Origin: a virus
Taxonomy: Duplodnaviria > Heunggongvirae > Uroviricota > Caudoviricetes
Direction: 5' to 3' (one strand)
Length of the DNA: 37,868 bases
IMG/VR virus record: IMGVR_UViG_3300021256_000061
Numbering within the stretch: the stretch's first letter is position 1; each line of letters starts with the position of its first letter. The position numbers were made by a program, and so were the translations under genes. The notes under the pieces were generated by a model. The model ran no database searches and was not told the origin of the DNA. It was given only the letters and a program-made list of their open reading frames with translations. Shown here piece by piece: positions 743-33,033 of this stretch.

Positions 743-1378
743 ATGGAAAAATATTATGTAGTTGATGACGGAAGTTTCCTCCAGGTAATTTCGGAATCGG
801 AAATGGATAATTATGATTTTGAAGATGACCAGATAGTTAAAGTGTTTAATAATAGCGATGCAGCCTTTGCTTTTGTAGAAAAAGAGAATCGTAAACGCGA
901 GGAACAGCAACCTAATTTTCAACCTTCACAGGGATACTATAATTTACAAGAATCTCAATTAAAGAAAATCGTTTTAGAATCAACAAAAAGAGCTTTAAAA
1001 GAGATTTCATATGGCATGGCGCGTGACGCTTTCAAGAAGGCTGGGGAAGACCTTGATAATGGAAGAAATTGGCTTGATAAGAAGAAAATAGACCGTTACG
1101 ACAATCTTTATCAACATTTTGTAGATAGGAGTCGCGAAAATTTTGACCCAAACATGAATGTTATCATTTGTTTTGATGATGGTTGTAAATATTTCAAGGC
1201 AGGAGAATTAGAGAAAAAATTTGAGGTTACTGGATATGTTGAACCAAGTCACAATCATATATATGCAAACCAGAAGATGATTGGTTATCCGAGGTTAAAA
1301 GGTCTTATCGGACCTATGTGGGATGGTGATAGGCTGCGCTACGAGACACAGGCAGTTTATGATGCTTTATCAATATAA
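743..1378 (+). CDS. Hypothetical protein with shared head-cargo helix (putative virion protein)
   Basis: 211 aa. Internal LQESQLKKIVLESTKRALKE. Has a CTATTTAT motif upstream and a terminator downstream. Confidence 0.75.
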   Translation: MEKYYVVDDGSFLQVISESEMDNYDFEDDQIVKVFNNSDAAFAFVEKENRKREEQQPNFQPSQGYYNLQESQLKKIVLESTKRALKEISYGMARDAFKKAGEDLDNGRNWLDKKKIDRYDNLYQHFVDRSRENFDPNMNVIICFDDGCKYFKAGELEKKFEVTGYVEPSHNHIYANQKMIGYPRLKGLIGPMWDGDRLRYETQAVYDALSI

Positions 1379-1380
1379 TA

Positions 1381-1411
1381 AAAAGGCCATTAGGGTTTCC
1401 TAATGGCTTTT
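1381..1411. terminator. Bidirectional intrinsic terminator
   Basis: aaaa-ggccattagg-gttt-cctaatggct-ttt between convergent genes. Confidence 0.75.
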
Positions 1412-1655
1412 AAACTAAATGTTCTAGTTCATCGAGAATTTCAAGGGCTGTATCTAACCCTTCAATTTTTCCTTTTTCTTTTACGCACTCTTCTTTTAAT
1501 TTGCCCCCGATGCGTTCATAGTGTTCTGAAAGCACGTGGCGCTTATCTTCAAAGGCGGCACGTATTTTATGAAGTTCATGAACCTCGGCGGTTTTGTAGG
1601 TTATGGCGCAAGCGGCCACTAAAATAAGTAAAACTATGAATCCGATTAATACCAT
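1410..1655 (-). CDS. Small membrane-anchored hypothetical protein
   Basis: 81 aa, with an N-terminal hydrophobic segment (VLIGFIVLLILVAACAI) followed by a charged helix. Confidence 0.65.
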   Translation of the reverse strand: MVLIGFIVLLILVAACAITYKTAEVHELHKIRAAFEDKRHVLSEHYERIGGKLKEECVKEKGKIEGLDTALEILDELEHLV

Positions 1656-1674
1656 ATTATTCCCTTTTTAAAAA

Positions 1675-2142
1675 TTAAGTTTTAACAATCCAGTCTGCAA
1701 AAGTAGTAACAAGTGGCCCAAGCCTTTTGAAGCGCACCTCATACCCCATACCCTCGGCCCAGCCTTTCGCTGAAGAATAAACTTCGTTGGACTTATATTT
1801 GGGGTTAGGATTAATATCAATGTCTATGTATTTTGGTCTTGGACAACCAAATTTAACGAGTTTCTCTGCAGTCTCAATGCTCGCGGCCACTTCATTCATA
1901 AGTCTGGTATTTCTTACGCGCTCTCTATCTGTTCTCCAGCGTTTGAATATGCAGTGTGCGCCGTGTCCTGGGTTATACATAGCAATGACTGTAGAATAGA
2001 CGGTTTTACCCCCCTTGTTCTGGGAGTCGGTACCTATCATGATTTCCGTGCCCTTATGTTCGTCACAATAGGTTTTAACATAGCTCTCGACTTCGTCAAG
2101 AACTTCACCTGAAATTTTTTTAAACGTAAATGTTCCAACCAT
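1675..2142 (-). CDS. YkuK/DUF458 RNase H-like protein
   Basis: Motifs IMIGTDSQ...VYSTVIAMY, RLMNEVAASI and IDIDINP. Start re-called to the ATG at 2142 because the track's TTG start (2163) lies inside the promoter -7 box. Confidence 0.8.
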   Translation of the reverse strand: MVGTFTFKKISGEVLDEVESYVKTYCDEHKGTEIMIGTDSQNKGGKTVYSTVIAMYNPGHGAHCIFKRWRTDRERVRNTRLMNEVAASIETAEKLVKFGCPRPKYIDIDINPNPKYKSNEVYSSAKGWAEGMGYEVRFKRLGPLVTTFADWIVKT

Positions 2143-2160
2143 CTTCAAATCTTTTGAGTA

Positions 2161-2191
2161 CAAAAATATAAATTATTTATTGCTTTTCAAA
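2161..2191 (-). promoter_or_regulatory. Bacteroidota sigma70-type promoter (TTTG-N19-TATTTTTG)
   Basis: TTTG at 2191-2188 and TATTTTTG at 2168-2161. Confidence 0.7.
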
Positions 2192-2195
2192 CAAA

Positions 2196-2456
2196 TTAAT
2201 CAATTTTTTTAATCCATTCCTCGAGTGTCATTTTCGATTTCCTGTTCTCGCGATTCCTGTTGCAATAATCAGGGCAGTAATCTCTGCCGACTACATTCGT
2301 GTAGTCATTGCCGTATTCATCTTTTTCCCCCGAATTATGCATATAGCACCTGCCGTGCCCCCAATTTTCTTTAAGGCCATAATTGGGAATGAAAACAATA
2401 TGTTTTGCCTCCATTACCTTGTACCACCAGCAGTTAGTGCAATATCCGTGATTCAT
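2196..2456 (-). CDS. Cys-rich hypothetical protein (possible Zn-binding)
   Basis: 86 aa, with CTNC...RCYMH...CPDYC. Part of a tightly packed minus-strand operon. Confidence 0.65.
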   Translation of the reverse strand: MNHGYCTNCWWYKVMEAKHIVFIPNYGLKENWGHGRCYMHNSGEKDEYGNDYTNVVGRDYCPDYCNRNRENRKSKMTLEEWIKKID

Positions 2457-2755: not shown

Positions 2756-2788
2756 ACCATTTTGACATGCAAGAATCGTGCCAAAAAT

Positions 2789-3960: not shown

Positions 3961-3976
3961 AGTAATGTTATAAAAA

Positions 3977-6118: not shown

Positions 6119-6125
6119 GATTGCA

Positions 6126-6183: not shown

Positions 6184-6744
6184 TTAAATTTCAATTTCCA
6201 GAAAATGAGTACCAGTTTTGGGGTTTGCTTCATTTTTCAACCCTCGCGGCATAACGCGTTTCCCTAGTGCGTCGGATGCGGCGCTGGCTAAAAGTGCAAT
6301 TTCAGCAACTCTTCTTCCTTCTTCGTTTGGTGAAACTACAAGCGTAAATGTTGAGGGACTGCTTTTATACATATCAACAATATCCCAACCGCAGCGGCTG
6401 GCTGTTCCTTCCAACTTTGTTTTTAAGTCCGCAAAACGACCTCTGTCCTCTTTTCTTTTTTCAACATCGGTTTCCCAGTTCTCAAGAACTTCGTTAACGC
6501 AGGAACGCACCATGCGTCTAATATCACTTTCGGTGATTTGTATCTTGTTTTCGTCCATTTTCTTTTTATGTTTTACTTTTTCAGGCAACCCCTTATGTTT
6601 TGTTTCAGCAAATTCTTTGGCGTCTTTTTTAGAGATTGAATCTGCAATATCTTTAATTTTTTCGGGAGCATCTTTGCATTCGCCTTTTTGAACCGCATGA
6701 ACCCACCCGAAAAGTCGCTGTTGCTCTTTACTTTTTGCAGGCAT
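6184..6744 (-). CDS. DUF3008-like N-terminus fused to shared head-cargo helix and an unknown domain
   Basis: Start re-called to MPAKSKEQQRLFGWVHAVQKG (6744), a DUF3008-type start. Internal ITESDIRRMVRSCVNEVLE. Confidence 0.7.
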   Translation of the reverse strand: MPAKSKEQQRLFGWVHAVQKGECKDAPEKIKDIADSISKKDAKEFAETKHKGLPEKVKHKKKMDENKIQITESDIRRMVRSCVNEVLENWETDVEKRKEDRGRFADLKTKLEGTASRCGWDIVDMYKSSPSTFTLVVSPNEEGRRVAEIALLASAASDALGKRVMPRGLKNEANPKTGTHFLEIEI

Positions 6745-6745
6745 A

Positions 6746-7117
6746 TTAGTTTTGTGTTGCTCTATACTTATATTTATTGCAGCATTCTTGCATGTCATCA
6801 AGAATGTTAAACAACCCACCGTTCTCGGGCCCATCAAGCTTCTTTTTCATGTTAAGAATATCTTCTTCGAGCTCCTTTAACATACCCTTGAGGTCTTCAG
6901 CGTTAGGAAGCATTGGCATTAAGTCGCCAATTGCGAAATGCTTATCTTCCATACCCATTGCACACTCGGCAAATCTATCTTCGCATTCATGAATACTATC
7001 CTCAATTTCATCACAAAGTTTATGCTCTGCGTTGTTGTTTGTGTTCCAGTGAATTTCTTTTACACGAATAAGATATCCATGTAAAGCACATACAAAATCT
7101 ATATATTCTTTTTTCAT
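6746..7117 (-). CDS. Ferritin/Dps-like four-helix protein (DUF5856-like)
   Basis: 123 aa. KEIHWNT...EHKLCDE...EDRFAECAMG acidic/His metal-ligand pattern. Confidence 0.7.
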   Translation of the reverse strand: MKKEYIDFVCALHGYLIRVKEIHWNTNNNAEHKLCDEIEDSIHECEDRFAECAMGMEDKHFAIGDLMPMLPNAEDLKGMLKELEEDILNMKKKLDGPENGGLFNILDDMQECCNKYKYRATQN

Positions 7118-8290: not shown

Positions 8291-8298
8291 CTATTTAT
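8291..8298 (+). promoter_or_regulatory. Putative late promoter motif CTATTTAT
   Basis: Upstream of the ATG at 8332. Confidence 0.6.
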
Positions 8299-8331: not shown

Positions 8332-8880
8332 ATGGGCAATAGAATAATAGATTTGCGCGACCCTGATGATTATATTCCGTTTGATGAATATGAGAAGCAT
8401 GAACAGGCATATAAAATGAGATTGCAAGCAAAAGCAAATGAATTACAAAAATATGTAGATGATACCCTTGCAGAAAAAAGCCCCATAAGTGTACGCTACA
8501 AGGAAACAATACATTTAGGAGTGGTTCAACCTCATATATTGGTTAACAACAATGGACAATTTTATTATTTTACAGATTGCGACAAGGCTGAAAATAAAGT
8601 GAAAGAATTCGTAGATGGCATTATGAATACAAATACAAGCAATACAGTTAAACTCAACGAAGCGCAGTTAAGGAAAATAGTCGCTGAGAGCATAAAGATG
8701 GCATTATCCGAAAATGAAAGTAGATTATTTCAAGAGTTGGATTTGCTATTATATAATGCTATGGGGGACGGACTATATTGTGGAAAATACGAGGGAGATG
8801 GCAACTGGGATTTTTATGAATGCTATAATAAATGGGGCGAAGAACTGAAAGGCATTCTAACGAAATATAACTTGATTTAA
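8332..8880 (+). CDS. Hypothetical protein with shared head-cargo helix
   Basis: 182 aa. Internal NTVKLNEAQLRKIVAESIKMALSENE. Confidence 0.75.
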   Translation: MGNRIIDLRDPDDYIPFDEYEKHEQAYKMRLQAKANELQKYVDDTLAEKSPISVRYKETIHLGVVQPHILVNNNGQFYYFTDCDKAENKVKEFVDGIMNTNTSNTVKLNEAQLRKIVAESIKMALSENESRLFQELDLLLYNAMGDGLYCGKYEGDGNWDFYECYNKWGEELKGILTKYNLI

Positions 8881-8932
8881 CAGGATAGAATATGAAAAAG
8901 AATACAGTTAAACTCAACGAAGCACAGTTAAG
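8641..8932 (+). repeat. 32-bp direct repeat (8641-8672 and 8901-8932) encoding NTVKLNEAQL
   Basis: aatacagttaaactcaacgaagc[g/a]cagttaag, one mismatch. Confidence 0.9.
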
Positions 8933-9252
8933 AAAAAATTGTTGCTGAATCGGTGAAGAAGGTTCTGAAAGAAAGTGACTTCAATAATACGGATTATGAC
9001 ATGTCTCCAGAAGCCGTGTCGATACGTAATCGTAATCGTGGTATTGGGGACGACGGTTTGAATGATGCTAAACGTAAATTTAGGCACATTCTTAATTGGG
9101 TTGCTCAGAGTATTGCAGCAATGAGTTCGGTACACTACGGAAACGTAAACTTTCAGCATACTTCATTTGAACGCGAGGAAGAAAGGGCTAGGCAGGCTCT
9201 TGAAGAATTTCATAAGCTCCTCGATAAAGTTTCAATTGAGTATCTTGATTAA
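8892..9252 (+). pseudogene. Head-cargo-helix protein with an apparent 1-nt insertion in an A run (pseudogene, slippage site or assembly error)
   Basis: ATG at 8892 gives MKKNTVKLNEAQLRK, then a stop. Removing one A from the A6 run (8933-8938) restores KIVAESVKKVLKESD and joins the track ORF 8953-9252. Confidence 0.65.
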
Positions 9253-10029: not shown

Positions 10030-10037
10030 ATAAATAG
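10030..10037 (-). promoter_or_regulatory. Putative late promoter motif CTATTTAT
   Basis: Located 19 nt upstream of the start at 10010. Confidence 0.6.
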
Positions 10038-10107
10038 TGCATAGGTTCAAAAAGAATGAAAAATTATGAAACATTTTTTCAAAAAAGTTGTTCACCCATT
10101 ATAAAAC

Positions 10108-10134: not shown

Positions 10135-10312
10135 AAATGGACAAATCAGCCACGATTAAGCGCCCAAGAGATTAACATCTCTTTTATAAATATAATGCAT
10201 TATTATAAATTGTCAAGATAATTTACAACACTCAAAGGGATAATTCCGAAATAATTTATAGAGAAATCGGGCCTTGGTGATGAGTTTGCTGTAATAGAAT
10301 AGACTTTTCGAA

Positions 10313-10320
10313 CTATTTAT
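10313..10320 (+). promoter_or_regulatory. Putative late promoter motif CTATTTAT
   Basis: Upstream of the ATG at 10338. Confidence 0.6.
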
Positions 10321-10337: not shown

Positions 10338-10637
10338 ATGAAACTTAATATTACAGAAAATGATATACGCAAAATGGTTAATGCCAGCGTAAGGCGAATC
10401 TTGAGGGAGGAAATTACCCGCGAAATGATAAGTGGTGCGATGACGCATGATATCGCAGATGCGTACGAGGCTGCCTTTAATGAAAAGGCTCCGCTGTTTG
10501 AGCCTAATGCTATCGACCTTGTTCTACAAAAGTATGCAAATGCGACGCCAGAGGAAAAGCGTGTATTCGAAAAAAAACTAAATCATGAATATGATGGTGA
10601 GCCAATTGAATTGCTTGATTTAGACGATGAATTTTAA
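10338..10637 (+). CDS. Small protein with N-terminal head-cargo helix
   Basis: 99 aa, MKLNITENDIRKMVNASVRRILREE. Has its own promoter motif and terminator. Confidence 0.75.
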   Translation: MKLNITENDIRKMVNASVRRILREEITREMISGAMTHDIADAYEAAFNEKAPLFEPNAIDLVLQKYANATPEEKRVFEKKLNHEYDGEPIELLDLDDEF

Positions 10638-11107: not shown

Positions 11108-11326
11108 TTATAATCTGCTTACAATCCTACCTCTGGTAAGGTCGTAAGGACTCATTTCAATTTTTACTCTATCGCCCGCAATAACTTTAATATAATTTTT
11201 CCGCATCTTTCCGCAGGCGTGGCATAATATAACAGCGTCGTTGCAATCAAGACGCACCCTGAACATTACATTTGGGAGTGTCTCGATTACTTCGCCGATT
11301 ACTTCTATTGCCTTTTCTTTTGCCAT
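11108..11326 (-). CDS. infA: Translation initiation factor IF-1
   Basis: 72 aa, [24 protein letters not shown]...[30 protein letters not shown]. Confidence 0.95.
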
Positions 11327-11349: not shown

Positions 11350-12486
11350 TTAAATAATTTTCTTTCTTTCGTTAGTATAACTTTCGTCATCTATGTTGTA
11401 AATGTCAGCTAATGTCATTGGTTTGTTTGTCGTTGGCAGTGGGTCCCTATCTTTGTATAGGGAAGCAAGAAGTTTATTCGCTTTCTCGGTTTCCAGCTCT
11501 TTAAATTCGTATTTGCAAGCCAACCTGCCTTTCCTCAATAGTGCGTCATCAATATTGGATATATTTTCATTGAACGTACAAATGAACTTGAGATTAAGCT
11601 CATCACTTAATAACCCGTCACCCATATTGAGGAGTAGGCTTACCGCACTACTGGAAGACATAGAGGATTTCCTGGTACGAATTACATCTTCGCAATCTTC
11701 GAGTATTATGATGCTATCTTTCATACTCATTAGGAAATTACCAAAAGACGGCTCGCCGAGTAGCCGTATCATATTTGCGGGTACGAACACGAATTTACAT
11801 GTAGGGTTGTTTGAAATGATGTTTCTTATGTACGTGGTCTTTCCTGTACCCTTTTCTCCGTGGAGAATTATTAAACCACTTTTTTCTTTATTCTTAATGA
11901 ATGCATCGATTATCGCGTTGGCCCCTACAAAATCATCATTATATTGTTTTTCAATGTCGAAATTTTCGGGCGGATTAATTGTATATTTATTTAGGAGGAA
12001 TCCGTTCTGGTCTTGCGCAACAAGGAATAGGTTGTCCTTTTCTGGTTCTGGCTTTTTATATGATTTTTTAACCAGGTCTATTAATTTGTTTAATTCCTCA
12101 ATATTATTGTTCGTATATAGTATGTAAGATTCGGTTACGGATTCTTCTATCCTTGCAAAAAGATTCTCTTTTTTCAGATATATATTTATGCCAACGCTTT
12201 CTTTGTTTTTCCCAAATTCAAGCGTCTTATAAATCACGTATTCCAAGTTTCTTTTTCCTGTCAGTTTTTGCCACCAACTTCTTTTGTCATACGCTTCAAT
12301 AATCTGAGGTAAAAGACTGGGGGTGTCGAAAAAATTTTCGATATCTGTCTTGGGATTCGCGAACATGTAACAATTGGGAAAACATTTGTTCCTCAAATAA
12401 AACATGTTCTGAAGTGACAGGCCACTCATTTTTGAGTAGCAATCTACATTGTTTTTCGCTAGACGTATATTGGTGAAATTTCTCAT
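11350..12486 (-). CDS. AAA+ family ATPase (single C-terminal AAA domain)
   Basis: 378 aa. Walker [10 protein letters not shown], Walker [16 protein letters not shown], and SRH TFN...ALLRKGRL. Confidence 0.85.
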
Positions 12487-13622
12487 TATACAGCTTCTTT
12501 ATATTTACCTTTTTTGGATAGTTTTTCCTGTACGTCTTCTTCTGTGATTGTCAATGTCTTGGTATTATTAATGGGGACTTCATACATGTAGTCAATCATG
12601 ACGGTTTCCATTATATTGCGTAGTCCTCTTGCGCCTGTTTTGAGGGATAGCGCGGTTTTAGCTATCCTCGACAAAGCATCCTTAGAAAAACTTAATGAAC
12701 ACCCATCAATTTCCATTAACGTCTTGTATTGTCCTACAAGTGAATCTTTTGGCTCGGTAAGTATTCTTACCATCTGCTCCTCGTTTAGCTTGGTGACATT
12801 GGTTATGACGGGGAAGCGTCCAACGAATTCTGGTATAAACCCAAAATCCTTAATGTCCTGGGGGGTTACATAATCAATGGGCTCTTTTCCGTTATCAATC
12901 TTTTGAGTCTCGGCATTGTTAAAGCCGATTCTGCCAGAACCAAGGCGCTTTTTGACTATATCTTCAATACCAACAAAAGCACCTGAGCCAATGAAGAGGA
13001 TATTGGTTGTATCTATATACAATAGTGGCTGTTCTGGATGTTTACGTCCACCAAACGGGGGTACGCCAATTACATTGCCTTCAACTATTTTGAGGAGTCC
13101 CTGTTGTACCCCTTCGCCTGAAACATCTCTGGTTATCGATGTACTAGCCCCCTTCTTTGCAATTTTGTCTATTTCATCAATAAAAACAATGCCGCGTTCT
13201 GCTGCCTCGATATCATAATCGCATTCTCTGAGGAGACCAACAAGCAAAGATTCAATGTCATCACCGACGTACCCAGCCTCGGTAATAGAAGTTGCGCTAC
13301 CGATATAGCAGGGCACATTAAGTAGTTTGGCAATTGTTTTAACCAGTAGAGTTTTTCCGCTGCCAGTTTCACCTAAAACAAGAATATTGGATTTGCCGAG
13401 TTTCTCTTCGTGCGTTTCATTATATGCAATCATCTTATAGTGATTATATATTGCAACTGAAAGCACCTTTTTCGCCTCTTCTTGCCCAATCACATATTCA
13501 TCAAGATACTCCTTTATTTCATTGGGCTTCAGAAGTGTTATTTCGTTATTTACTACGTTCTGATTCTGTTCAGGGTTATTCATTCTCTTTCCTTTTTTAT
13601 TAATAGCCTTTTCTTTCTCCAT
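12486..13622 (-). CDS. clpX: ClpX-like unfoldase lacking the N-terminal Zn-binding domain
   Basis: VIGQEEAKKVLSVAIYNHYK, KSNIL.LGETGSGKT, EAGYVGDD, FIDEIDKI, RDVSGEGVQQGLLK, RKHP, IGF loop, GARGLR. Confidence 0.93.
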   Translation of the reverse strand: MEKEKAINKKGKRMNNPEQNQNVVNNEITLLKPNEIKEYLDEYVIGQEEAKKVLSVAIYNHYKMIAYNETHEEKLGKSNILVLGETGSGKTLLVKTIAKLLNVPCYIGSATSITEAGYVGDDIESLLVGLLRECDYDIEAAERGIVFIDEIDKIAKKGASTSITRDVSGEGVQQGLLKIVEGNVIGVPPFGGRKHPEQPLLYIDTTNILFIGSGAFVGIEDIVKKRLGSGRIGFNNAETQKIDNGKEPIDYVTPQDIKDFGFIPEFVGRFPVITNVTKLNEEQMVRILTEPKDSLVGQYKTLMEIDGCSLSFSKDALSRIAKTALSLKTGARGLRNIMETVMIDYMYEVPINNTKTLTITEEDVQEKLSKKGKYKEAV

Positions 13623-15656: not shown

Positions 15657-16556
15657 TTAAAGGGGGTTGTAATAATGAAATTTAAACCCCTGGGCTTTTA
15701 GCTCGGTCATGGCTCTATCAATAGCTTTTTTCACAAAGCTGGGGCCCTTTGTTTCCACTGCATTCGTGCAATTTCTACAATAATCAAATACTTTACTAGT
15801 ATCCCATCTATACCCCACTCTATCTCGTGGGGTTATTTTGCCCCTGTCAATACTTTTTGTCCATGAGTTCAATGTGCCTTCTGAGGGACATTCAAAATAA
15901 TTTTGTATTCTCTCTTTTATGTACTCAACATACGACTTAAATTCTTCATATTTTTGTTGGTCATATATTTTATTATCTTCGTTGAGTTCCTTTTTTTGGA
16001 TTTCTACATAATCAGCAAATGGCTGACGCTGTTTTCTTCCTCGATAAAGCCATTTTTTAAATGTTTCCAGGGAGACACCCGTGATTTCTCTAAATCCCTT
16101 CCAGTTCGGACTATAATTTGCAAAATAGGCGTCCTTTGCTTCGTCCTTTGACAAAAAGCCAAGCATTACCTTTGTTTCATCAAATTCACCTTTTTTGTTA
16201 TTTTGGTCTACGCAATACACGTTTTCAAAATCATCAAGGTTTGGCCCAAGAAAAACATCCACAGCATCTCCGTCTTTACCCTTAGTAATATTGAAGTATC
16301 CGTAGTGATTTTTCATCACATTATACTGTAGCTCCCCCTTGTCGTTTTTGTAATACCTTTTACTTCCCTTGGGGTTTTCAATAGCAATTTTCATACCCCT
16401 AACAGAAATGTGGGCCATTCTATAGTTACCCGCTTCTTTTTGTTTTTCAGTAGGCGAGGTATCAACTTCGTTTGTGCGTATGTCAATTTCAGACGAAGCA
16501 ATCTCAGATAACATTCGTCTTAATTGTGTTTCATTTATGAGAATTTTTTTTGCCAT
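15657..16556 (-). CDS. InPase (polyvalent-protein inorganic pyrophosphatase-like) domain protein with N-terminal head-cargo helix
   Basis: KEAGNYRMAHISVRGMKIAIENPKGS...HYGYF...KDGDAVDVFLG...DQ...FDETKVMLGF...AYFANY. N-terminus ILINETQLRRMLSE. Confidence 0.8.
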   Translation of the reverse strand: MAKKILINETQLRRMLSEIASSEIDIRTNEVDTSPTEKQKEAGNYRMAHISVRGMKIAIENPKGSKRYYKNDKGELQYNVMKNHYGYFNITKGKDGDAVDVFLGPNLDDFENVYCVDQNNKKGEFDETKVMLGFLSKDEAKDAYFANYSPNWKGFREITGVSLETFKKWLYRGRKQRQPFADYVEIQKKELNEDNKIYDQQKYEEFKSYVEYIKERIQNYFECPSEGTLNSWTKSIDRGKITPRDRVGYRWDTSKVFDYCRNCTNAVETKGPSFVKKAIDRAMTELKAQGFKFHYYNPL

Positions 16557-16954
16557 TAAACATGATTTTTACTTAAATTGCCATAAGTACCAATCTTATC
16601 ATCATACCAATCGGAAACGACTTGTTTTAAGAATTTTACTCTTTGTTCTTCGTTAGAAAACATGGCTTTATATTTTTCGTTAAGTAAATCTTCTAGGTCT
16701 TGTCTGAACATTTTTTTTAACTCCTGGCCAGATGGTGCCTTCATGATTGCTATCTGGATTTGGCATGGCATTCCTGAATTGTCGAGACTGTCCATCAGTC
16801 CGCGTTCAAACGTATTATCTAAAAATTCTTTGACAATAAGCACTTGTTGGGGGTTTATGGGATATCGCTTTTCTTCTTTGACAAGCACATCTTCCGCCAT
16901 TTTATTCAAAATGGTAGACAATTGCGCTTCATTTAATATAACTTTTTTCCCCAT
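16556..16954 (-). CDS. Hypothetical protein with N-terminal head-cargo helix
   Basis: 132 aa, MGKKVILNEAQLSTILNKM. CTATTTAT at 16978-16971. Confidence 0.75.
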   Translation of the reverse strand: MGKKVILNEAQLSTILNKMAEDVLVKEEKRYPINPQQVLIVKEFLDNTFERGLMDSLDNSGMPCQIQIAIMKAPSGQELKKMFRQDLEDLLNEKYKAMFSNEEQRVKFLKQVVSDWYDDKIGTYGNLSKNHV

Positions 16955-16970: not shown

Positions 16971-16978
16971 ATAAATAG
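16971..16978 (-). promoter_or_regulatory. Putative late promoter motif CTATTTAT
   Basis: Located 16 nt upstream of the start at 16954. Confidence 0.6.
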
Positions 16979-16990
16979 TTTCTTTTCAAG

Positions 16991-22413: not shown

Positions 22414-25400
22414 ATGAAAACATTGTATATAAACGAGGCACAAAAGAAAAAAATAAAAAAAGTGATAGCTGCTCAAGACCAGGTTGGCGGTAAGGTTAAT
22501 GCTGGTGTCATGGAGCCTGTCGCCCATATCACCGAAAACACTGAAGAAACAATCACTCTTTATCATGGGGTGAAATTTGATGGAATGGAGTTTGCCCTCG
22601 CCAATAATAGGTTGGAGCCTAGAGTTTGCTCGGAGGGTGGTCCTAAAGCAATATGGCTCTCAGAAAAACAATATCACTACCCATTTACATTTGAGCTACA
22701 CATTCCTAGACGTATGGTAGAACAAATGACCAACGTGGATTACATTTACACAAAACCAATCTCTCTGAATGAGTTCGGGTGTAAGTTAATCAAAACATCT
22801 TTTTATGTCCACGTGTCGGGGTTTATGGCTACTGTTAACCTTTTGGATAAAAGCTTATTTGAGAGACAATGTAAAATATTGGGTGAGGATTTTCTGACGA
22901 GTTTGTTGTCAACCTTTGAGAAATATCCCGAAATAACTAGCCGTATTGTTGAGCCCGCGCTTGAGGCCGCCGTTCCGCTTGTCCTAAAAGAATCGACGAA
23001 GAAAAAGAAGATTATTAAGAACGACGAGGGAAAAATCGTTCCTGAAATTTGCCCTGATTGCGGTGGAAAGGTTGGTGTTTATATTCAGGGCGAGCCTGTT
23101 TATCTTTGTAGTAAATGCAAAAAATATTTCGGTACAATGCCTTTCCAAAAAAATCTGAAAGAATCCGTACATGGTCTAATGCTTTTGGAAAACGAGGGTA
23201 CGAACATGAAGCGTGCTCGCAAGTACCTTGAAACAATGGGGTATTCTCCTGAAGAAAGGCAAAAAATTCTCGATGCGATTCGTACCGATATACCTAGCAG
23301 CCGTTTGCAACAATGCAAATTCCTCCTTGGCGTCACGAGAATGTATATGGATGGACAGTTGCAGGATGGGCGCTCCATTGCCGAATTGAACAAGGTCCTT
23401 AAATACGTTGCCTCTGACGCGCACGTTAATGAGTACGATTGCGACCTTAACGGCGAAAACCTTGATACATTAGTGCGGAGGTTTAGCGGTGTTGCAAAAG
23501 CCGATTTGGAACAATCCAAAGCAGCGTCTAGCGCGAGACAACTTACAGCCAATAACGACTATACGGTTGTGCCAATTGATAATTATGAGGAGGCGCGAAA
23601 ATACGGAAAGTACACATCGTGGTGTGTAACACATAATGAGGATATGTATAACACGTACACTAATGAAGGTATGGGAAGGTTTTACTTCTGCCTTAGGCGG
23701 GGATTTGAAAATGAGCCTAAAGCAACAGGTAAAAACTGTCCTTTGGATGATTACGGTTTAAGTATGGTGGCTGTCAGTGTCACGATGGAGGGTGAACTCA
23801 ACACTGTCACCTGCCGTTGGAACCACGATAATGGCGGTAGCGATAGCATAATGACACTTGAACAGTTGGAAAATTTGCTCGGGCGAAACTTCTATCAAAC
23901 TTTCATGCCGTACTCGCGGGAAGAACTCCATGCAAAAGGCATCATACTCTTTGACGAAGTTCAGGGGTTACTCGACTCTGGTAAAAGCCCAGAAGAAATA
24001 TTTGAATGGGTTGACAAATTTTATAATGGGGTTGCGGTGGTGGAATTAAATGGTAAAGGCAATTTCATTAATACCGACGGTAAACTCCTTTCAAAGCAAT
24101 GGTTTGATTGGACGGATGACTTTTCCAAGGGGAGGGTTGCACGGGTAGGATTAAACAATAAATGGAATTTCATCAACACCGAGGGACAATTCCCTTTAAA
24201 TCAATGGTTTGATGGCGCGGGGGGATTTCACGAAGGGGTTGCAGGAGTAAGATTAAAAGGTAAATATAATTTCATTAATACCGACGGTAAGCTTCTTACA
24301 AATCAATGGCTTGATTGGGCGAATGATTTTTACAAGGGGGTTGCACAAGTACGATTAAAAGGTAAATACTATCTCATTGACACAAAGGGTAATCTTTATC
24401 CTTGGACCCCCCAAAACTCAATCCCGAAAAACCTGAGGGAATCCAAGGAGGTTGATAGGTGGCGCGACGAATTCGATTACAAACCATATATCAAGTCCAT
24501 AATGAACTTCCTTGCGGAGAAGGGGCTTGAGGTAAAACCGTTCCCTAAGGTGATAATCCACAGGGAGCCTCAGGAGGGTCTATATGTCAAGACTGGGTAT
24601 TATGACCCCGAAACCAGTTGTGTACACCTATTCATTGATTCAAGACACCCCAAGGACGTACTTAGAAGTCTGGTACACGAACTCATTCACCACACGCAGA
24701 ATGTCAGGGGTATACTCGTGGGCTATAACGGCACGACATTGGAGGGCGATGAAGTACTGCAGAGACTGGAATCGGAGGCGTACCTTAAGGGTAACATCTA
24801 TTTCAGGAAATGGACTGAGGAATTGCATCCGACAATTCTGAATACCAAGAAGAATCTCAATGAATCAATCGAAGATGTCTACAATATCGCTGAGGACCTT
24901 GATTGTATTGGCGTTGCGGATACACTTCATGAATTTTTAGTTGATAAAAGAAATGGCATTAAGAAAAAACATTGGAACTTGATTCCTGCGGAACAATATA
25001 AGAACCTTCTAACAAGGTACATGCAAGGCCCATTAACTGCGCGTATCCCAGAAAATATTGTATATGATTGGTTTACTAATATTTTAATACCTAATGCCTT
25101 CGCTATAGACAACATAACAACGCTTGCTGGTCATAACCAGGGCTTTCCAGCGGAAGAAGTTTCTGAGGAATTGGAGTATGAATTCGGTGACCGTTTTGAT
25201 GTAACTGATTACGGTAGTGGATATAAAGCTCTTAACGAGCTCGGCTTTTATGAATGGTGTTCACTTCCTGATGGAAGTGATGGTTGGAGTGACTATGGCA
25301 TAGGGCCCATTTTTGATGAGCTTGCCCAGTATAGACCAAACATGGATGCAGGAGAACTTCTCATATTGATAAACCGCGTGCTCCACATCGGCCACTGTCG

Positions 25401-27495
25401 CGGTGATTTAGCTTCCGCTTTTATTCAGGGTGGCAGTAGGTCTTGTTCCGACATAAGTGGTATTTTGCGTGAGTCAATTGAAAATCCTGGCTTTGCTGCT
25501 TGGTTTGGAAACTCTAAAGTCGTGGATAAGGAAGGTAATCCGCTTCCCATGTACCATGGCACTAATTCAGAATTTACTGCATTCTCAAAGGACTATTTCT
25601 CACATGGAAGCGATGCATATCTCGGCATTGGCTTTAATTTCACTAGTAGCAAATATGAGGCCAGTGGATATGGTGAGAATGTACATGAAGTGTATTTGCG
25701 TGCGGAGCATCCAATGACAAATAAAAGTAAAACAATCTCATTGGGGGCCGTGATGAATGCAATAAAAGAAGTTGATTACGGTGAAGACCCCGATGGCAGC
25801 ATCTGTACAGCGTTGCTAAGTAAAAGGGTTGTAAATCCAACAACTACTGATTTTTATAATGCCGCAAGAGCAATATATGATTATGCGGAAAGTGATGGTG
25901 ATATCTATTCTGCTTTCGGCCTTGCATATAGTGGTTCAAACGATGCGAAAATCACTGAGGTCTTCAAATCAATGGGGTTCGACTCCTGTATCGATTATGA
26001 TAATTATAGCGGAAACATTACTTATGTCGTGGTCTTTGACCCTAATCAAATAAAATCCATCAACGCCCAGAACTTTAACCTAGAAAGTGACGAGACAATT
26101 GACGAAGATATTGATATGTTGGAGGATACAAATCCAGAGGATGTTGACCTTTCGTCATTCGAACCTAAAAAGCAACTTAATCCCCGTTTCTGGAAAAACG
26201 GAAGGCTTGATTCTCGTGTTAGAGTAAGACTTCTTGATATTGCTGACGACTTTATTGAAACACTCAATGTTCCTTGGGTGAACCCTTCCGATATTATTAT
26301 GACTGGTTCACTTGCCAATTTCAACTGGTCAAAAGAACATTCGGATATTGACCTCCACGTTGTCATGGATTTTGATGATGTGGATAAAAATGTTTTACTT
26401 GTTAAAGATTACTTTGATAGCAAGAAGAAGATTTGGAATGATGAGCACCAGAATCTCACCATTGGGGGATTCCCTGTTGAAGTCTATGTTCAAGATATTT
26501 CTGAAGAGCACGCATCCAGTGGAGTGTACTCACTTGAAAAAGACAAATGGATAGTAAAGCCGTCATTGAAGAATTTTGAAGGTGAAATTGATAGCGAGGC
26601 TATTAAAACCAGGGCTGCGGAATACATGAATGAGATTGATGACCTCGAAAATGAATATGAGGACAAAATTGCTGAAACTGACTTGAGTGAACTCCACGAA
26701 AAGGCGGTCGAGTTATTCAAAAGAATTAAGGCCGAGAGGAAAAACGGTTTTGAAAATGGTGGGGGAGAATTTAATACAGGTAATTTAATTTTTAAAACAT
26801 TGAGAAGAAATGGTTATATCGGAAAATTGAGCAGGCTGAAATTAGACACTTATGATGCATCACAATCTCTTTTAAATGAAAATGTAACCGAAGGTGTCTA
26901 TTACCATTACATACGTCTTAGATTTTTAAATGAAATAATAAAGAATAATCGCATCAAACTCAACACAGGCGCTGAAGATGCCCCTGGTGGCGGCTTAGGG
27001 TACCTTTCTTTAACCAGAAACCGTTCGAACGCATATGGTTTTGCTACGTCATATAAAAATCCCGACTATAGGGGTATGGAAAATTATGCACGAATTGAAT
27101 TTGATAAGTCTGCATTTAAAAACATAAGAAATTCAAGTATTAAGCCATATGACTTTTTTGCCTCACAATTCCCCGAGGATGGTCTAAATGGGAAAACATA
27201 TCATTTGAGAAATCTCGAAAGCGGGGAAGATTATGGTAATCAGGATAAAGAACAATTCTGGGCTCAAGCGGAAGATAGACTTATTGCTCCTGGAGATGCC
27301 CATGAGGAAGGTTGTAAATGGTTCATAACAAATGCATTTAAGTATATTAATCGAATAGATATTATGATTCGAGATACTGGATTGTCAGATTATGAGGAGT
27401 TAGTAAGTATACTTAATCAACCAAACTATTCTGCTTGGAAAGAAAAATGTCACATTTACAACAATAATAACAGCAAGTTTAATAGACAATTGTAA
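22414..27495 (+). CDS. Large polyvalent multidomain protein (ART-like, Zn ribbon, WG repeats, HExxH metallopeptidase, ART-PolyVal, Pol-beta-type nucleotidyltransferase, C-terminal ART-like domain)
   Basis: 1693 aa. LYHG...IWLS; CPDC...CSKC; 4-5 WG-type repeats; LVHELIHH; WFGNSKVVD...MYHGT...GIGFNFT...FDPNQIKS; MTGSLANFNW...SDIDLH...VEVYVQD; YYHY...SLTR...QAEDR. Confidence 0.85.
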   Translation: MKTLYINEAQKKKIKKVIAAQDQVGGKVNAGVMEPVAHITENTEETITLYHGVKFDGMEFALANNRLEPRVCSEGGPKAIWLSEKQYHYPFTFELHIPRRMVEQMTNVDYIYTKPISLNEFGCKLIKTSFYVHVSGFMATVNLLDKSLFERQCKILGEDFLTSLLSTFEKYPEITSRIVEPALEAAVPLVLKESTKKKKIIKNDEGKIVPEICPDCGGKVGVYIQGEPVYLCSKCKKYFGTMPFQKNLKESVHGLMLLENEGTNMKRARKYLETMGYSPEERQKILDAIRTDIPSSRLQQCKFLLGVTRMYMDGQLQDGRSIAELNKVLKYVASDAHVNEYDCDLNGENLDTLVRRFSGVAKADLEQSKAASSARQLTANNDYTVVPIDNYEEARKYGKYTSWCVTHNEDMYNTYTNEGMGRFYFCLRRGFENEPKATGKNCPLDDYGLSMVAVSVTMEGELNTVTCRWNHDNGGSDSIMTLEQLENLLGRNFYQTFMPYSREELHAKGIILFDEVQGLLDSGKSPEEIFEWVDKFYNGVAVVELNGKGNFINTDGKLLSKQWFDWTDDFSKGRVARVGLNNKWNFINTEGQFPLNQWFDGAGGFHEGVAGVRLKGKYNFINTDGKLLTNQWLDWANDFYKGVAQVRLKGKYYLIDTKGNLYPWTPQNSIPKNLRESKEVDRWRDEFDYKPYIKSIMNFLAEKGLEVKPFPKVIIHREPQEGLYVKTGYYDPETSCVHLFIDSRHPKDVLRSLVHELIHHTQNVRGILVGYNGTTLEGDEVLQRLESEAYLKGNIYFRKWTEELHPTILNTKKNLNESIEDVYNIAEDLDCIGVADTLHEFLVDKRNGIKKKHWNLIPAEQYKNLLTRYMQGPLTARIPENIVYDWFTNILIPNAFAIDNITTLAGHNQGFPAEEVSEELEYEFGDRFDVTDYGSGYKALNELGFYEWCSLPDGSDGWSDYGIGPIFDELAQYRPNMDAGELLILINRVLHIGHCRGDLASAFIQGGSRSCSDISGILRESIENPGFAAWFGNSKVVDKEGNPLPMYHGTNSEFTAFSKDYFSHGSDAYLGIGFNFTSSKYEASGYGENVHEVYLRAEHPMTNKSKTISLGAVMNAIKEVDYGEDPDGSICTALLSKRVVNPTTTDFYNAARAIYDYAESDGDIYSAFGLAYSGSNDAKITEVFKSMGFDSCIDYDNYSGNITYVVVFDPNQIKSINAQNFNLESDETIDEDIDMLEDTNPEDVDLSSFEPKKQLNPRFWKNGRLDSRVRVRLLDIADDFIETLNVPWVNPSDIIMTGSLANFNWSKEHSDIDLHVVMDFDDVDKNVLLVKDYFDSKKKIWNDEHQNLTIGGFPVEVYVQDISEEHASSGVYSLEKDKWIVKPSLKNFEGEIDSEAIKTRAAEYMNEIDDLENEYEDKIAETDLSELHEKAVELFKRIKAERKNGFENGGGEFNTGNLIFKTLRRNGYIGKLSRLKLDTYDASQSLLNENVTEGVYYHYIRLRFLNEIIKNNRIKLNTGAEDAPGGGLGYLSLTRNRSNAYGFATSYKNPDYRGMENYARIEFDKSAFKNIRNSSIKPYDFFASQFPEDGLNGKTYHLRNLESGEDYGNQDKEQFWAQAEDRLIAPGDAHEEGCKWFITNAFKYINRIDIMIRDTGLSDYEELVSILNQPNYSAWKEKCHIYNNNNSKFNRQL
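23998..24405 (+). repeat. WG (KWG-type) beta-repeat region within the polyvalent protein
   Basis: About 23-aa units (F..GVA.V.L.GK.NFINT.G.....QW.D). Near-identical DNA 'aatttcattaataccgacggtaa' at 24061 and about 24268. Confidence 0.85.
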
Positions 27496-27535: not shown

Positions 27536-27568
27536 TTACAAAAATAAAGTTTTTTAACATTTCGAACA

Positions 27569-29739: not shown

Positions 29740-29744
29740 GTAAT

Positions 29745-30356
29745 ATGAAAGTACGTATAACCGAAAGTAAATTAAGAGACCTTATTTCTGAGGTAGTAAA
29801 AGAAGAACTTGCAGGAACTTATGGGGTTTCTGACCACATGGATTGTGGTGAAGAAAAGCTTGAAGAGGTTGATGGCTATGGTGTGTCTGATGAGCTTGAG
29901 CAGCCAGGGGATATGAGAGAGGTTGGTTCTGGTATATATACTGATAAGCTGCAGGCTCTTGTTGACCAAGCAAACCAGGCATATGAAAACGCAAAAAAAC
30001 TAACGGAGGATGACACATGTCTAATTGGCACAATGGGTGGATATTCTGATGTATCTACGATGTATGGCCTATTAAGTCCAATCGTTATATCTAGGGGTTG
30101 TCTTATAATTTCAACGGTTGAGGCATATAATAGCACACCAGATGTTCAAAGAATCAGGTGTTTCAAAACTGTTAATGGTAAAACTATAAAATTTACTGAC
30201 GATATGGCTTATCCTGAAGGTGGATATCAATATGCAGTTAAGTGTTTAAAAGGTATAATTAGGGACGCGCAGAAGGGAATTGAATACAATGGTGCGATTG
30301 ACCCAAATATGGATGATGCAACACAGGAAAAAATCGGAAAACGATATGGTATTTAA
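29745..30356 (+). CDS. Hypothetical protein with N-terminal head-cargo helix
   Basis: 203 aa, MKVRITESKLRDLISEVVKEEL. Short internal duplication GTYGVSD/DGYGVSD. Confidence 0.75.
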   Translation: MKVRITESKLRDLISEVVKEELAGTYGVSDHMDCGEEKLEEVDGYGVSDELEQPGDMREVGSGIYTDKLQALVDQANQAYENAKKLTEDDTCLIGTMGGYSDVSTMYGLLSPIVISRGCLIISTVEAYNSTPDVQRIRCFKTVNGKTIKFTDDMAYPEGGYQYAVKCLKGIIRDAQKGIEYNGAIDPNMDDATQEKIGKRYGI

Positions 30357-30360
30357 CGCA

Positions 30361-30390
30361 AGGCCCCGAAGGTAACACTTCGGGGTTTTT
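30361..30390 (+). terminator. Intrinsic terminator
   Basis: ccccgaag-gtaaca-cttcgggg-ttttt. Confidence 0.75.
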
Positions 30391-30402
30391 CTTATTTATA
30401 AA

Positions 30403-30410
30403 CTATTTAT
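30403..30410 (+). promoter_or_regulatory. Putative late promoter motif CTATTTAT
   Basis: Upstream of the ATG at 30429. Confidence 0.6.
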
Positions 30411-30428
30411 TCATATAAGTTTTTTATT

Positions 30429-31169
30429 ATGGATAAGAAAAAACTCATCATATCACAAAAACAATTTAATCATATTAATGAGGTTGAACAGGCCAATGTT
30501 AATTTAACCGCTAATATTGGAACTGGTGGTGTACCAAAAATGAATCAAATATTGGATGCACCTGAAATGAGAACTGCTGTTCAAAAAACTGGCATGGACC
30601 CGATGTTTATACCACAAACTTATAAGGGCCCACAGGCAAGCCCCACTGTTCAAATTCAAGCTGACGGGGCTGGAAATGTTACATCGGTGCCCGCTGGTAC
30701 GCCGCCAGATGCTGCTCTTGTTGTTAAAAACACCAGTGGCTCAAGTAGCGCAGATGGTACTATACAAGAGTCCTATACAAAGCGAGCCGTAGAAAAAATG
30801 CGTATTGCTAAAATTATGGAGAATGGGACTCGTTTCACGAAAAAACAAATCAACGAAGATATTAATAACGGAAAAGTGTTAAGCGAAGAGGATAGGGATG
30901 CTGTGATTGAATTTTGTAAAAAAAATGATTTTATTGCTAGGATAATTAAACCTGAGTCCCTATTTGGTAGAGATACTGTTTGTGCTAATGTTTCCAGACT
31001 TAGAAATCTCTTCTTAAGTGATTTATATAACCCCAATACAAAAATGTCTCTTGACAAGGGTGCTAGCTTGCCTCATAATGTTGATGAAGGTGCGCTGCCG
31101 ATTCATGTTTGGGTATATGACGAAAACAATTTACTTAAAGAAGAATATATAATTTTCTTGGAACGATAG
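30429..31169 (+). CDS. Hypothetical putative virion protein
   Basis: 246 aa. N-terminal LIISQKQFNHINE, and internal IQES and FTKKQINE motifs shared with the 29203-29739 frame. Confidence 0.7.
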   Translation: MDKKKLIISQKQFNHINEVEQANVNLTANIGTGGVPKMNQILDAPEMRTAVQKTGMDPMFIPQTYKGPQASPTVQIQADGAGNVTSVPAGTPPDAALVVKNTSGSSSADGTIQESYTKRAVEKMRIAKIMENGTRFTKKQINEDINNGKVLSEEDRDAVIEFCKKNDFIARIIKPESLFGRDTVCANVSRLRNLFLSDLYNPNTKMSLDKGASLPHNVDEGALPIHVWVYDENNLLKEEYIIFLER

Positions 31170-31170
31170 A

Positions 31171-33033
31171 ATGTCTAAAACAATCATAATAAGCGAAGAT
31201 GTTTTAAAGAGTGGTGTCCTGGATGAGATTGTAGAAACGAATCAGCTCCCCGATGCCATCCTTCAAGATGTTTTAGTCAATAAAACACCTCTTTCAAACA
31301 ATCCTGCAATTCCTGATGATGTCGGGCTTGAAAAACTTGTTTTACTTTCTTACAAACATTCCTTACAAAAAGATATACCTAACGGTAAAATAGAAAAAGC
31401 AAAGGATGCGATTTCTAAGATTGTTAAGGAAACCCAAGAAATCGAGCGGCCCATCAGAAACAACCTTGAACAATTGATTTGTGAGAAGGTTGTAAATCTT
31501 CTTAATGTCCCCATCGAAGCGGTGGATTTTTCGTTAACGCTTGAAGATGAAATTCCTCAAAGTGAAACGATAATACCTTTTGGGCCAAATGAGACGGTTG
31601 CTAATCCTTATTACTATACAGATATTGCACAGCAAAAAATACTTGTAGGCGAAGCGTCAAAAAGGAAAATGATAAACGTTCTTGTCGCTGGGGCAGCACA
31701 GTATTATACTAAGAGAATTTTGGATGAGAGTGCAGCAGAATTAGACGAGTTTAATGGGCGTTTGTATGATTTGTATTGCGATTATTTGGCAATAAACGAA
31801 CATTTACTTTTTTGCGATAAAGAAATTAACATTACCGAGGAGAATAAAGGTTTGGTTGGTACCTCAATCGTTGACCTTGGCAATGACGACACTAAAAATC
31901 GTCTCGTAGCGAAAGGGACAACGTTCCCAATTTTAGTTTATGAAACAATAAAAGGCTTTTTGGAAATGTGTGCTGCACACGGCTTGCCTGAAGATAGAAA
32001 ATTGGCTGATGAGGTTCTTTCAATATCTGACTATCTTTCTGCAGAACCATGGAATATGCGTTTGGGTACTGCGGTTTGGTCTTATTTTAATCGGGCAACA
32101 AACAACGCTCCAGCGAATACTTTACCATATGTTTTAATGAAAATTTCAAAGCTGGATACTGAAAAATTTAGTAACCTCATGAAGGGCGTTTTCCAAGAAA
32201 CGCCGCAAGCTTCCAGGGTATTGGAGCGCGTGGTTAAATATGCTATTAAGAAGAACGAACACGCGGAGTTTAATAAAAAAATGAATGCCTTCTCGAACTC
32301 CCTCGTAGTGATTAATGATGATGAAAAACTGTTAAACGAGAATGTCTCGGATATAGTTTATCATTTTACTTGCTCTTGGCCAGGAATTGTTCATAATGAC
32401 TGTTTTTATTTTAGGTGCAATGACTCTCCTTTTGCTGGAAAATCCAATCCTGTTGGCTACCCATATTACATGTCAGTCACAAGAAGCAAAAACAGCAGAG
32501 TTGGTTATGCGCTAAAATTTGAAGGCACCTCGCAACCGTTGGCAAGGCTTACAATAGACGGTAGAATGATAAACCAGAGCAATCTCTTTAAGGGCTCTCC
32601 GTTTAATTTTTTCTATGATGTTGAATGGAATGGTTCGGAATCACCTTCTGCAAAACAACATTATCATAATTTTTTAAATGGTAACAAAAGAGATAACTAC
32701 CCAACCGCTGGATATGATATTTTTTCACACGATAGGATTGAACGCGATAATAAAAAATATTCTTCACCAGACAGGGATGAATTAGACGCTTCCTTTAGAG
32801 TTCAGTCGGAAGATAGAATCTATACTAAAGTCCAACGCCTTGATGATTTTCATAAGTATGTATTGAGAATGGATATTCTTCTGAATGGACGTAGCAGGCT
32901 GGCAATTTTAACGGCTTTAAAATCAATGCCTGGTATTGATGTGTGGAAAGATAAAATCTATTTTTATGAGGAGGCCCGTGATTTTGATATGCAAAACGAT
33001 AGGGGAGTGCCTTGTGCAAGATTAATAAACTAA
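31171..33033 (+). CDS. Two-domain putative virion protein: unknown N-terminal domain plus C-terminal ART-like domain
   Basis: 620 aa. LLNENV junction at about aa 388, then IVYHF...SVTR...RLTIDG...QSEDR, paralogous to the last domain of the 1693-aa protein. Confidence 0.7.
   Translation: MSKTIIISEDVLKSGVLDEIVETNQLPDAILQDVLVNKTPLSNNPAIPDDVGLEKLVLLSYKHSLQKDIPNGKIEKAKDAISKIVKETQEIERPIRNNLEQLICEKVVNLLNVPIEAVDFSLTLEDEIPQSETIIPFGPNETVANPYYYTDIAQQKILVGEASKRKMINVLVAGAAQYYTKRILDESAAELDEFNGRLYDLYCDYLAINEHLLFCDKEINITEENKGLVGTSIVDLGNDDTKNRLVAKGTTFPILVYETIKGFLEMCAAHGLPEDRKLADEVLSISDYLSAEPWNMRLGTAVWSYFNRATNNAPANTLPYVLMKISKLDTEKFSNLMKGVFQETPQASRVLERVVKYAIKKNEHAEFNKKMNAFSNSLVVINDDEKLLNENVSDIVYHFTCSWPGIVHNDCFYFRCNDSPFAGKSNPVGYPYYMSVTRSKNSRVGYALKFEGTSQPLARLTIDGRMINQSNLFKGSPFNFFYDVEWNGSESPSAKQHYHNFLNGNKRDNYPTAGYDIFSHDRIERDNKKYSSPDRDELDASFRVQSEDRIYTKVQRLDDFHKYVLRMDILLNGRSRLAILTALKSMPGIDVWKDKIYFYEEARDFDMQNDRGVPCARLIN

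Follow-up and report, generated by a model that had tools for sequence, protein, structure and literature searches.

A helix framed by two protease-type sites recurs on unrelated late-type proteins of uncultured cattle-gut jumbo phages and may be a removable capsid-targeting tag

Introduction

In 1996, Mullaney and Black are said to have described, on the internal proteins IPI-III and Alt of phage T4, a capsid-targeting sequence (CTS) that is removed by gp21. The T4 Ip proteins have a common leader at the N-terminus only, are cut after a Glu by gp21 and are injected as anti-restriction proteins (PMC9026906; PMC12373910). The T4 propeptides, 10-19 residues long, are cut after Glu by gp21 (PMC9026906), and T4 Ip1-3 and the Dar proteins of phage P1 are anti-restriction proteins carried into the next cell (PMC9026906; PMC12373910; PMC9024508). 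Here we analyse a stretch of DNA from an uncultured giant phage (IMG/VR record IMGVR_UViG_3300021256_000061; 37,868 nucleotides (nt), 37.9 kb; hereafter the window, to whose positions all coordinates refer unless another genome is named), in which several otherwise unrelated proteins carry the same short amphipathic helix, framed by two sites of the type that the T4 head protease cuts.

Other described systems resemble parts of this arrangement. The first 30 residues of P1 DarB are enough to bring either an anti-restriction protein or a reporter into the head of a myovirus (PMC9024508). In the jumbo phages phiKZ, 201phi2-1 and SPN3US, many inner-head proteins are processed after Glu, within (S/A/G)-x-E, by a gp21-related protease, and the propeptides of this type are thought to act as CTS (PMC5694885). 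The polyvalent proteins that Iyer et al. (2017) describe from phages and conjugative elements combine two to fifteen effector domains in one polypeptide (PMC5512222). Injected proteins act before phage gene expression and offer the phage one of its main ways of overcoming restriction and other defences. They can be recognised from sequence only in T4, P1 and a few phiKZ-like phages. A comparable solution is that of the encapsulins, whose cargo-loading peptides, short and portable, send diverse enzymes inside an HK97-fold shell.

The DNA of the window occurs in bovine-gut metagenomes, and its closest records are uncultured phages of 270-480 kb; the cultured relatives (Flavobacterium phage immuto, Microcystis phage Mel-JY01 and T4-like phages) are distant. 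Judging by the relatives, the host would be sought among rumen Bacteroidota. The window holds a T4-type head module composed of a Peptidase_S77 protease, a scaffold-like protein and a Gp23-type major capsid protein. Our literature searches found no description of the tag. We consider it probable that the motif is a capsid-targeting tag that can be removed, akin to the T4 CTS but longer and with two sites.

Results

Across relatives of the window, the tag has the consensus K-x-I-R-L-T-E-S-D-L-H-R-I-V-K-E-S-V-x-R-I-L-K-E, and the complete module reads M-(x)1-4-K-x-I-R-[L/I]-[T/N]-E ↓ S-D-L-H-R-I-V-K-E-S-V-x-R-[V/I]-[L/I]-x-E ↓ cargo, where the arrows stand at the predicted cleavage points. The logo of 95 unique tagged proteins, K-x-I-(R/K)-[L/I 99%]-(T/N)-E(97%)-(S/N/A)-(D/Q)-L-(H/R/K)-x-(I/L/M)-(V/I)-x-E-S-(V/I)-x-x-(V/I)-[L/I 95%]-(K/N/R)-E(84%), has L/I in 99% of the proteins at position 5, Glu in 97% at position 7 and small residues (S/N/A/G/T) at position 8; at the second site, L/I occupies position 22 in 95% and Glu position 24 in 84%, with no conservation beyond. 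Two near-invariant (L/I)-x-E sites thus flank the helix, and conservation ends after the second, so that two protease-type sites delimit the module exactly. An earlier note on this DNA had proposed (I/L)-x-E as the processing site. The first site, with its Glu and the L/I two residues before it, fits this; the second conserved (L/I)-x-E had been missed. In an AlphaFold 2 (AF2) model computed on the tag alignment, residues 1-6 are extended and a helix starts at residue 7, the Glu itself, with a mean predicted local distance difference test (pLDDT) value above 90 for residues 1-20; the helix is amphipathic, with a heptad-like hydrophobic spacing. Neither Pfam nor PHROGs gave a match covering the tag in the window proteins, the positions of the matches having been checked, and no family was matched by more than six members in sets of 67 and 150 tagged proteins from relatives.

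The tag is widespread among the relatives. Eighty related loci, gathered via the capsid protein, gave 51 matches scoring 10 bits or more, which almost always lie a few residues downstream of a Met, and five complete relatives (295-413 kb) hold 9-20 copies each. A profile search of 1.84 billion representative proteins returned 7,218 clusters (50% identity) at E <= 0.001, 253 of them at E <= 1e-10. The tag is N-terminal, within 12 residues of a Met, in 84 of the 95 unique proteins, and among 124 N-terminal copies, 97 have the Glu as residue 8 or 9.

The closest known system is the T4 CTS of IPI-III and Alt, which is alike in every feature that could be compared except sequence. In both cases, a short N-terminal leader ending in (L/I)-x-E stands on otherwise unrelated late proteins, the phage has a gp21-family protease, a scaffold and a gp23 capsid protein, and the cargo includes anti-restriction and host-modifying proteins; the Glu is residue 8-9 here and residue 10 in T4. 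The T4 facts given in the earlier note, namely that gp21 cuts after (I/L)-x-E and that an N-terminal targeting sequence is removed, are as stated in PMC9026906. The likeness is one of pattern only: the tag has no detectable sequence similarity to the T4 CTS M-K-T-Y-Q-E-F-I-A-E, and with about 24-26 residues it is about twice as long, since a conserved helix follows the first site and a second site closes it. Unlike the T4 CTS, the tag also occurs internally, at C-termini and in 2-4 copies per protein, and its scale is far larger, with 9-20 copies in each genome and cargo families in the thousands, compared with about ten Ip types in T-even phages.

The other systems are further removed. The P1 DarB signal belongs to one protein in the stepwise Dar assembly; it is not family-wide, lacks protease motifs at its flanks and shares no sequence with the tag. 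Unlike the tag, the phiKZ-type propeptides are specific to individual proteins and long, often exceeding 100 residues, with a small residue instead of L/I at P3, the third residue before the cut, and no common portable helix. Encapsulin peptides are C-terminal, remain uncleaved and bind the shell directly, with no phage, protease or injection involved. The polyvalent proteins overlap in domain repertoire (InPase, ArdA, YodL, ART-PolyVal, NUDIX neighbours) with the tagged proteins and their neighbours and are likewise predicted to be packaged and injected (PMC5512222). Most tagged proteins consist of one small domain with a tag of its own; only a 1693-residue window protein has the multi-domain build of the polyvalent proteins, and, as far as that work was searched, it describes no such tag.

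In the window, a six-frame scan with a regular expression found eight copies, among them a short start at 22414-22437, and a ninth, at 8892, is split by a frameshift; the positions given in the earlier note are gene starts and not those of the motif. Each copy was scored with a hidden Markov model (HMM) in leave-one-out fashion, and the best score in a shuffled control (20 six-frame sets) was 6.0 bits. N-terminal copies stand on a 99-residue protein encoded at 10338-10637 (10338..10424, plus strand; M-K-L-N-I-T-E↓N ... I-L-R-E↓E; 17.3 bits), on the InPase-domain protein 15657-16556 (16461..16556, minus strand; 14.6 bits), on a 203-residue protein of the head-core operon, 29745-30356 (29745..29828, plus strand; 9.6 bits), and, as a weaker copy, on a 132-residue protein, 16556-16954 (16862..16954, minus strand). 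This last one is marginal alone (6.9 bits) and reaches 26.3 bits against the clade model A1, which includes that copy; the 29745 copy scores 33 bits against the clade model. Three copies are internal: at residues 65-92 of 743-1378 (935..1018, plus strand; L-Q-E↓S ... L-K-E↓I; 12.0 bits), between the DUF3008 domain and the C-terminal domain of 6184-6744 (6463..6549, minus strand; 15.8 bits), an orthologue of which in a relative likewise combines a DUF3008 domain with an internal tag, and at residues 104-131 of 8332-8880 (8641..8724, plus strand; 20.8 bits).

The remaining copy, N-terminal on a gene whose remainder reaches 9252 (8892..8973, plus strand), is interrupted by one extra A in the A6 run 8933-8938. 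Contigs from two independent bovine-gut runs, X2 and X3, about 97% identical to the window, have one A fewer at 8933, which restores the frame, so the gene is intact in related strains or in the population; the frameshift is a strain mutation or a homopolymer error and does not mark a dead family member. One of these two contigs has an additional deletion of 12 bases at 9050.

The earlier note had seen the helix on about ten unrelated late proteins. Eight genes are supported as carrying it, and the model built from these instances, whose leave-one-out scores mostly exceed the shuffled best, finds the tag in relatives as well. Three other genes named there, 22414 as a full instance and 30429 and 31171 as degenerate forms, did not reach significance as full copies. 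The start of the 1693-residue ART-PolyVal protein (22414..22437, plus strand; M-K-T-L-Y-I-N-E) scores -1.6 bits in leave-one-out and below 9 bits against the clade model, and neither the N-terminus of 30429 nor that of 31171-33033, a degenerate short form (31171..31236, plus strand; M-S-K-T-I-I-I-S-E ... L-D-E), scores in the HMM. The 22414 and 31171 proteins keep only a start of the form M-x-K-x-I-x-(I/L)-x-E, and 30429 has a Gln at the place of the Glu. The short start of 22414 is conserved in its homologue in the complete relative G001, and closer homologues of 31171 retain M-x-K-x-I-x-(I/L)-(T/N)-E.

That the tagged proteins share nothing besides the helix holds both in the window, where the parts outside the helix have no mutual BLAST matches, and among the 95 proteins of the relatives, whose non-tag parts fall into 78 BLAST clusters. 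Could the motif then be a DNA-level element, or simply the constant end of a fast-evolving cassette of promoter and leader, kept alike by recombination, or the remnant of a paralogous family, with no targeting role at all? Where window copies share a residue, they also share its codon 47% of the time, while codon usage would predict 39%. Agreement this near to random places conservation on the peptide and not on the DNA, rules out a recombination box or a translational signal, and tells against the cassette. Tagged genes do form hotspots (seven in 12 kb, at 44.7-56 kb of the complete relative G005), and the adjacent copies of 8332 and 8892 are nearly identical, as such a cassette would have it. 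The cargo, with its unrelated known folds (ArdA, NUDIX, the oligonucleotide/oligosaccharide-binding (OB) fold of InPase, WG repeats), and the presence of the tag inside proteins and at C-termini speak the other way, and we regard the absence of any targeting role as highly improbable.

The tagged genes belong to a late-type promoter class. The motif ACTATTTAT occurs 10 times in the window, against 0.78 expected: at 719..727 (plus strand), 10030-10038 (minus strand), 10312-10320, 16971-16979 (minus strand), 20426, 20759, 22386, 27527, 30402 and 34093. The form CTATTTAT is present at 8291 and 33287, and a form with one mismatch, ACTATTTAC, precedes the ATG at 7117 by about 26 nt, ahead of the operon 6746-6184. 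Counting the CTATTTAT and ACTATTTAC forms, units of this type hold all eight supported tag genes and 11 of 27 other genes (Fisher p = 0.004). This association had been claimed in the earlier note and extends to G001 and G005, the two complete relatives from which genome-wide statistics were drawn. The G005 form of the motif, (A/C)TATTTAT(A/T), stands some 20-45 nt ahead of the ATG; counted by operon, TATTTAT-type units of this genome hold 16 of 17 tagged genes, compared with 91 of 439 others (p = 5e-10). The corresponding numbers for G001 are 10/15 and 85/419 (p = 2e-4). The capsid, scaffold and protease genes of both relatives are in the same class, as are the homologues of 27569, of 31171 and of the 22414 domain; in the window as well, the protease, scaffold and major capsid genes have ACTATTTAT-type promoters. 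Judged by promoter motif only, the tagged genes would therefore be expressed late, together with the head genes.

In the G005 hotspot, most of the seven tagged small genes have a TATTTAT motif of their own, an arrangement reminiscent of the T-even ip loci. Untagged late proteins near the head module of G001 (242357, 258791, 264157, 275361, 296686) have a second, shorter leader, M-x-K-x-I-I-I-T-E-E-Q-F ... L-N-E, which as a class gave no significant enrichment. Late proteins that lack the tag but have an (I/L)-x-E among their first 12 residues, a wider class, were likewise set aside as not significant (odds ratio about 1.7-1.8, p about 0.12 after removal of the HMM-tagged genes).

The head module provides a candidate for the protease. 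The prohead protease of the T4 gp21 family (Peptidase_S77; 33317..34036, plus strand; PF03420, E = 5e-21) and the Gp23-type major capsid protein (35651..37573, plus strand; PF07068, E = 2e-73) enclose the gene of an acidic, helical, scaffold-like protein of 488 residues (34140..35606, plus strand), which by position and homologues would take the place of T4 gp22. The T4 gp23 site L-T-E65↓A, taken from the T4 record, aligns with L-L-S-E↓A-T of the window capsid protein; we predict this as the capsid maturation site (residues 57-60, nt 35819-35830, plus strand), and 79 relatives retain it in the form L-(L/I)-x-E with A or S next. The tag sites have L/I and Glu at the same P3 and P1 spacing, P1 being the residue before the cut. 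The N-terminus of the protease itself holds N-T-L-T-E↓I and L-L-I-E, found across the clade as (L/I)-(T/V)-E and L-L-I-E, in parallel with the L-I-E-9 site of T4 gp21 (PMC9026906).

A packaged protein could also keep the helix as a permanent anchor by which it is held to the inside of the capsid, to the DNA or to an inner body, the (L/I)-x-E motifs then being helix-capping or contact residues. The most conserved part of the tag does follow the first Glu, the AF2 helix is continuous from residue 7, and late co-expression with the head genes fits this explanation equally well. It sits poorly with the sharp end of conservation after the second L-x-E, with a near-invariant L/I and Glu at the spacing of the capsid's predicted site, with the extra E-S site upstream of internal joints described below, and with tagged ArdA, which would be of little use in the next host if anchored. 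We consider a permanent anchor unlikely.

As to the surface on which the tag would dock, the scaffold-like protein 34140 is a candidate. Its residues 30-50 or so form an amphipathic helix followed by an acidic run, with a weak likeness to the second half of the tag. In 36 of 68 scaffold homologues the best match to the tag lies at residues 30-50, with a median of -0.7 bits and two at 8-10, the shuffled 95th percentile being 1.2; scores this low are suggestive only and do not make the scaffold N-terminus a copy of the tag. Complex prediction with the protease and the first 40 residues of 10338 (score 0.00, partner pLDDT 40-45) speaks neither for nor against binding.

The predicted cargo fits the injected-effector kind. 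In the window, 15657-16556 has an InPase domain (PF18823, E = 1.4e-47) and 6184 a DUF3008 domain, and the 1693-residue protein 22414-27495, which has the short start only, combines ART-PolyVal, WG-repeat and NTase domains. In relatives, the tag stands on proteins matching ArdA (E = 3e-30), NUDIX, DUF3293/S-adenosylmethionine (SAM)-lyase-like, DUF4258, DUF5856, WG-repeat and YodL families, and a RelB-like antitoxin domain occurs in 6 of the top 150 proteins of the profile search. For most cargoes no family was matched; they are small, with a median of 105 residues. Strongly acidic cargo, as in DNA mimics, is a trend only (34% versus 21%, Mann-Whitney p = 0.08). The ArdA-like protein with an N-terminal tag is encoded within the head gene module of G001, two genes upstream of the protease, in a late operon shared with the 31171 homologue. 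Since ArdA made late would be useful only if carried into the next cell, its place there fits injection.

Orthologues may differ by the tag, which 51447 of G001 has and 6746 of the window does not, and the 620-residue protein 31171-33033 is a fusion of parts that are separate in G001 (264157, 246147): its residues 1-385 match a 390-residue G001 protein and residues 385-599 a G001 protein with an N-terminal tag. A domain of about 200 residues, starting (N/G)-(V/I)-x-x-(I/G)-V-Y-(H/Y) and each time placed after L-x-E, recurs in three architectures, namely after the tag in G001 246147, at residue 390 of the 31171 protein and as the last domain of the 1693-residue protein (pairwise E-values 1e-6 to 2e-9). 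This last protein contains 14 L-x-E↓S-type motifs against 7.6 expected (p = 0.02), several of them at N-L-(K/R/N)-E↓S junctions.

Among the best matches of the profile search (top 150), many proteins hold 2-4 copies, the median distance between which is 117 residues. A relic M-N-K-K often stands before internal copies, as would be expected if neighbouring tagged genes had fused. Of the internal copies, 34% have a further E-(S/N)-(K/R/N) motif at most 14 residues upstream, which in the examples shown mostly follows a hydrophobic residue; only 2% of control windows have such a motif. Such an E-S-(K/R)-type site together with the relic start fits tagged genes that were fused and whose products are separated again by cleavage; it is as if arrays of tagged genes fused and split freely.

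Discussion

The model that we propose combines these observations. Late in infection, the extended start and the amphipathic helix would dock the tagged protein onto the scaffold or core of the assembling prohead. The Peptidase_S77 protease would then cut after the first Glu, the second or both, freeing the cargo inside the head, and internal copies would serve as cleavable joints that split fused cargoes. The cargo would leave with the DNA and act in the next cell before any phage gene is expressed, as could be imagined for the ArdA anti-restriction protein, the SAM-lyase-like enzyme and the nucleotide and pyrophosphate hydrolases. The earlier note had spoken of a portable head-targeting and processing module: portability, promoter class, framing sites and the T4-type head genes agree with it, and packaging, cleavage and binding to the scaffold or core are the steps that it predicts.

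Several points weigh against this model. Packaging, cleavage, injection and the docking partner are steps that we infer from sequence. The best-conserved stretch of the tag falls after the first site, whereas the targeting information of T4 precedes the cleaved Glu, so the first site may not be cut; the second site is itself weak in three window copies (15657, 16556 and 29745). In some proteins the copies are internal or C-terminal, unlike in the T4 Ip proteins, although T4 Alt is processed at both ends (PMC9026906). A tblastn search with the tag against 50,697 phage records gave a single match, in one uncultured relative, and no cultured relative with the tag. The tag was found neither in Flavobacterium phage immuto nor in a complete 345-kb relative (G006), both of which have the S77 protease, which therefore does not require the tag; Microcystis phage Mel-JY01 has one weak match, adjoining its protease. 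Tag-bearing contigs were also collected by a DNA pattern independent of the capsid gene. Of those rated at least 90% complete, four of five have the S77 protease (PF03420), which speaks for the model, as have three of five incomplete ones; the fifth, rated 95% complete, speaks against it, since it shows neither an S77 protease nor more than a fragmentary match to gp23.

The virion location of the tagged proteins being something that we infer, the helix might instead bind a common partner outside the capsid, such as a phage or host hub, a chaperone or unfoldase, or serve as a late address for a membrane or compartment. An amphipathic helix with heptad-like spacing would suit such a partner, and AAA+ proteins of the Clp type are at hand, with a ClpB/ClpA-type double AAA+ protein at 17023-19596 (Pfam and PHROGs matches) and a candidate ClpX-like ATPase at 12486-13622, read from its N-terminal sequence alone. 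These Clp genes lie outside the late-type units of the window, and a partner of this kind leaves unexplained the two protease-type sites, the promoter class shared with the head, the tagged ArdA in the head module and the effector-type cargo. We judge it very unlikely.

How far does the removable capsid-targeting tag reach? It may be a universal address label, cleavable and serving also as a polyprotein joint, and as such mark out the entire injected proteome of a very large clade of cattle-gut jumbo phages, a claim for and against which we find the chances evenly divided. If it is true, each genome would hold 9-20 cargoes drawn from more than 7,000 cargo families, almost all of them without function in current annotation, and the anti-defence and takeover proteins of the first minute of infection could be read directly from sequence. 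Foreign proteins could also be loaded into these capsids with the 24-residue helix as a general handle. A conserved tag would mark the injected proteins of uncultured gut and rumen phages and so yield a list of candidate anti-defence functions, in which ArdA and a SAM-lyase-like enzyme are already present. A docking helix placed between protease sites would further suggest how T4-type heads recruit their cargo.

Two minor observations concern the remaining genes. Two relatives have a much longer prohead protease frame (G005 265809, 607 residues; G017 30848-31858, 402 residues), in which the S77 match is split or moved to the C-terminal end; this suggests a segment inserted within the gene, possibly an extra domain or an intein-like element. 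In the window, a 72-residue protein encoded at 11108-11326 is, from its sequence alone, a candidate IF-1-like protein, and, like the Clp-type genes, it is not part of a late-type unit.

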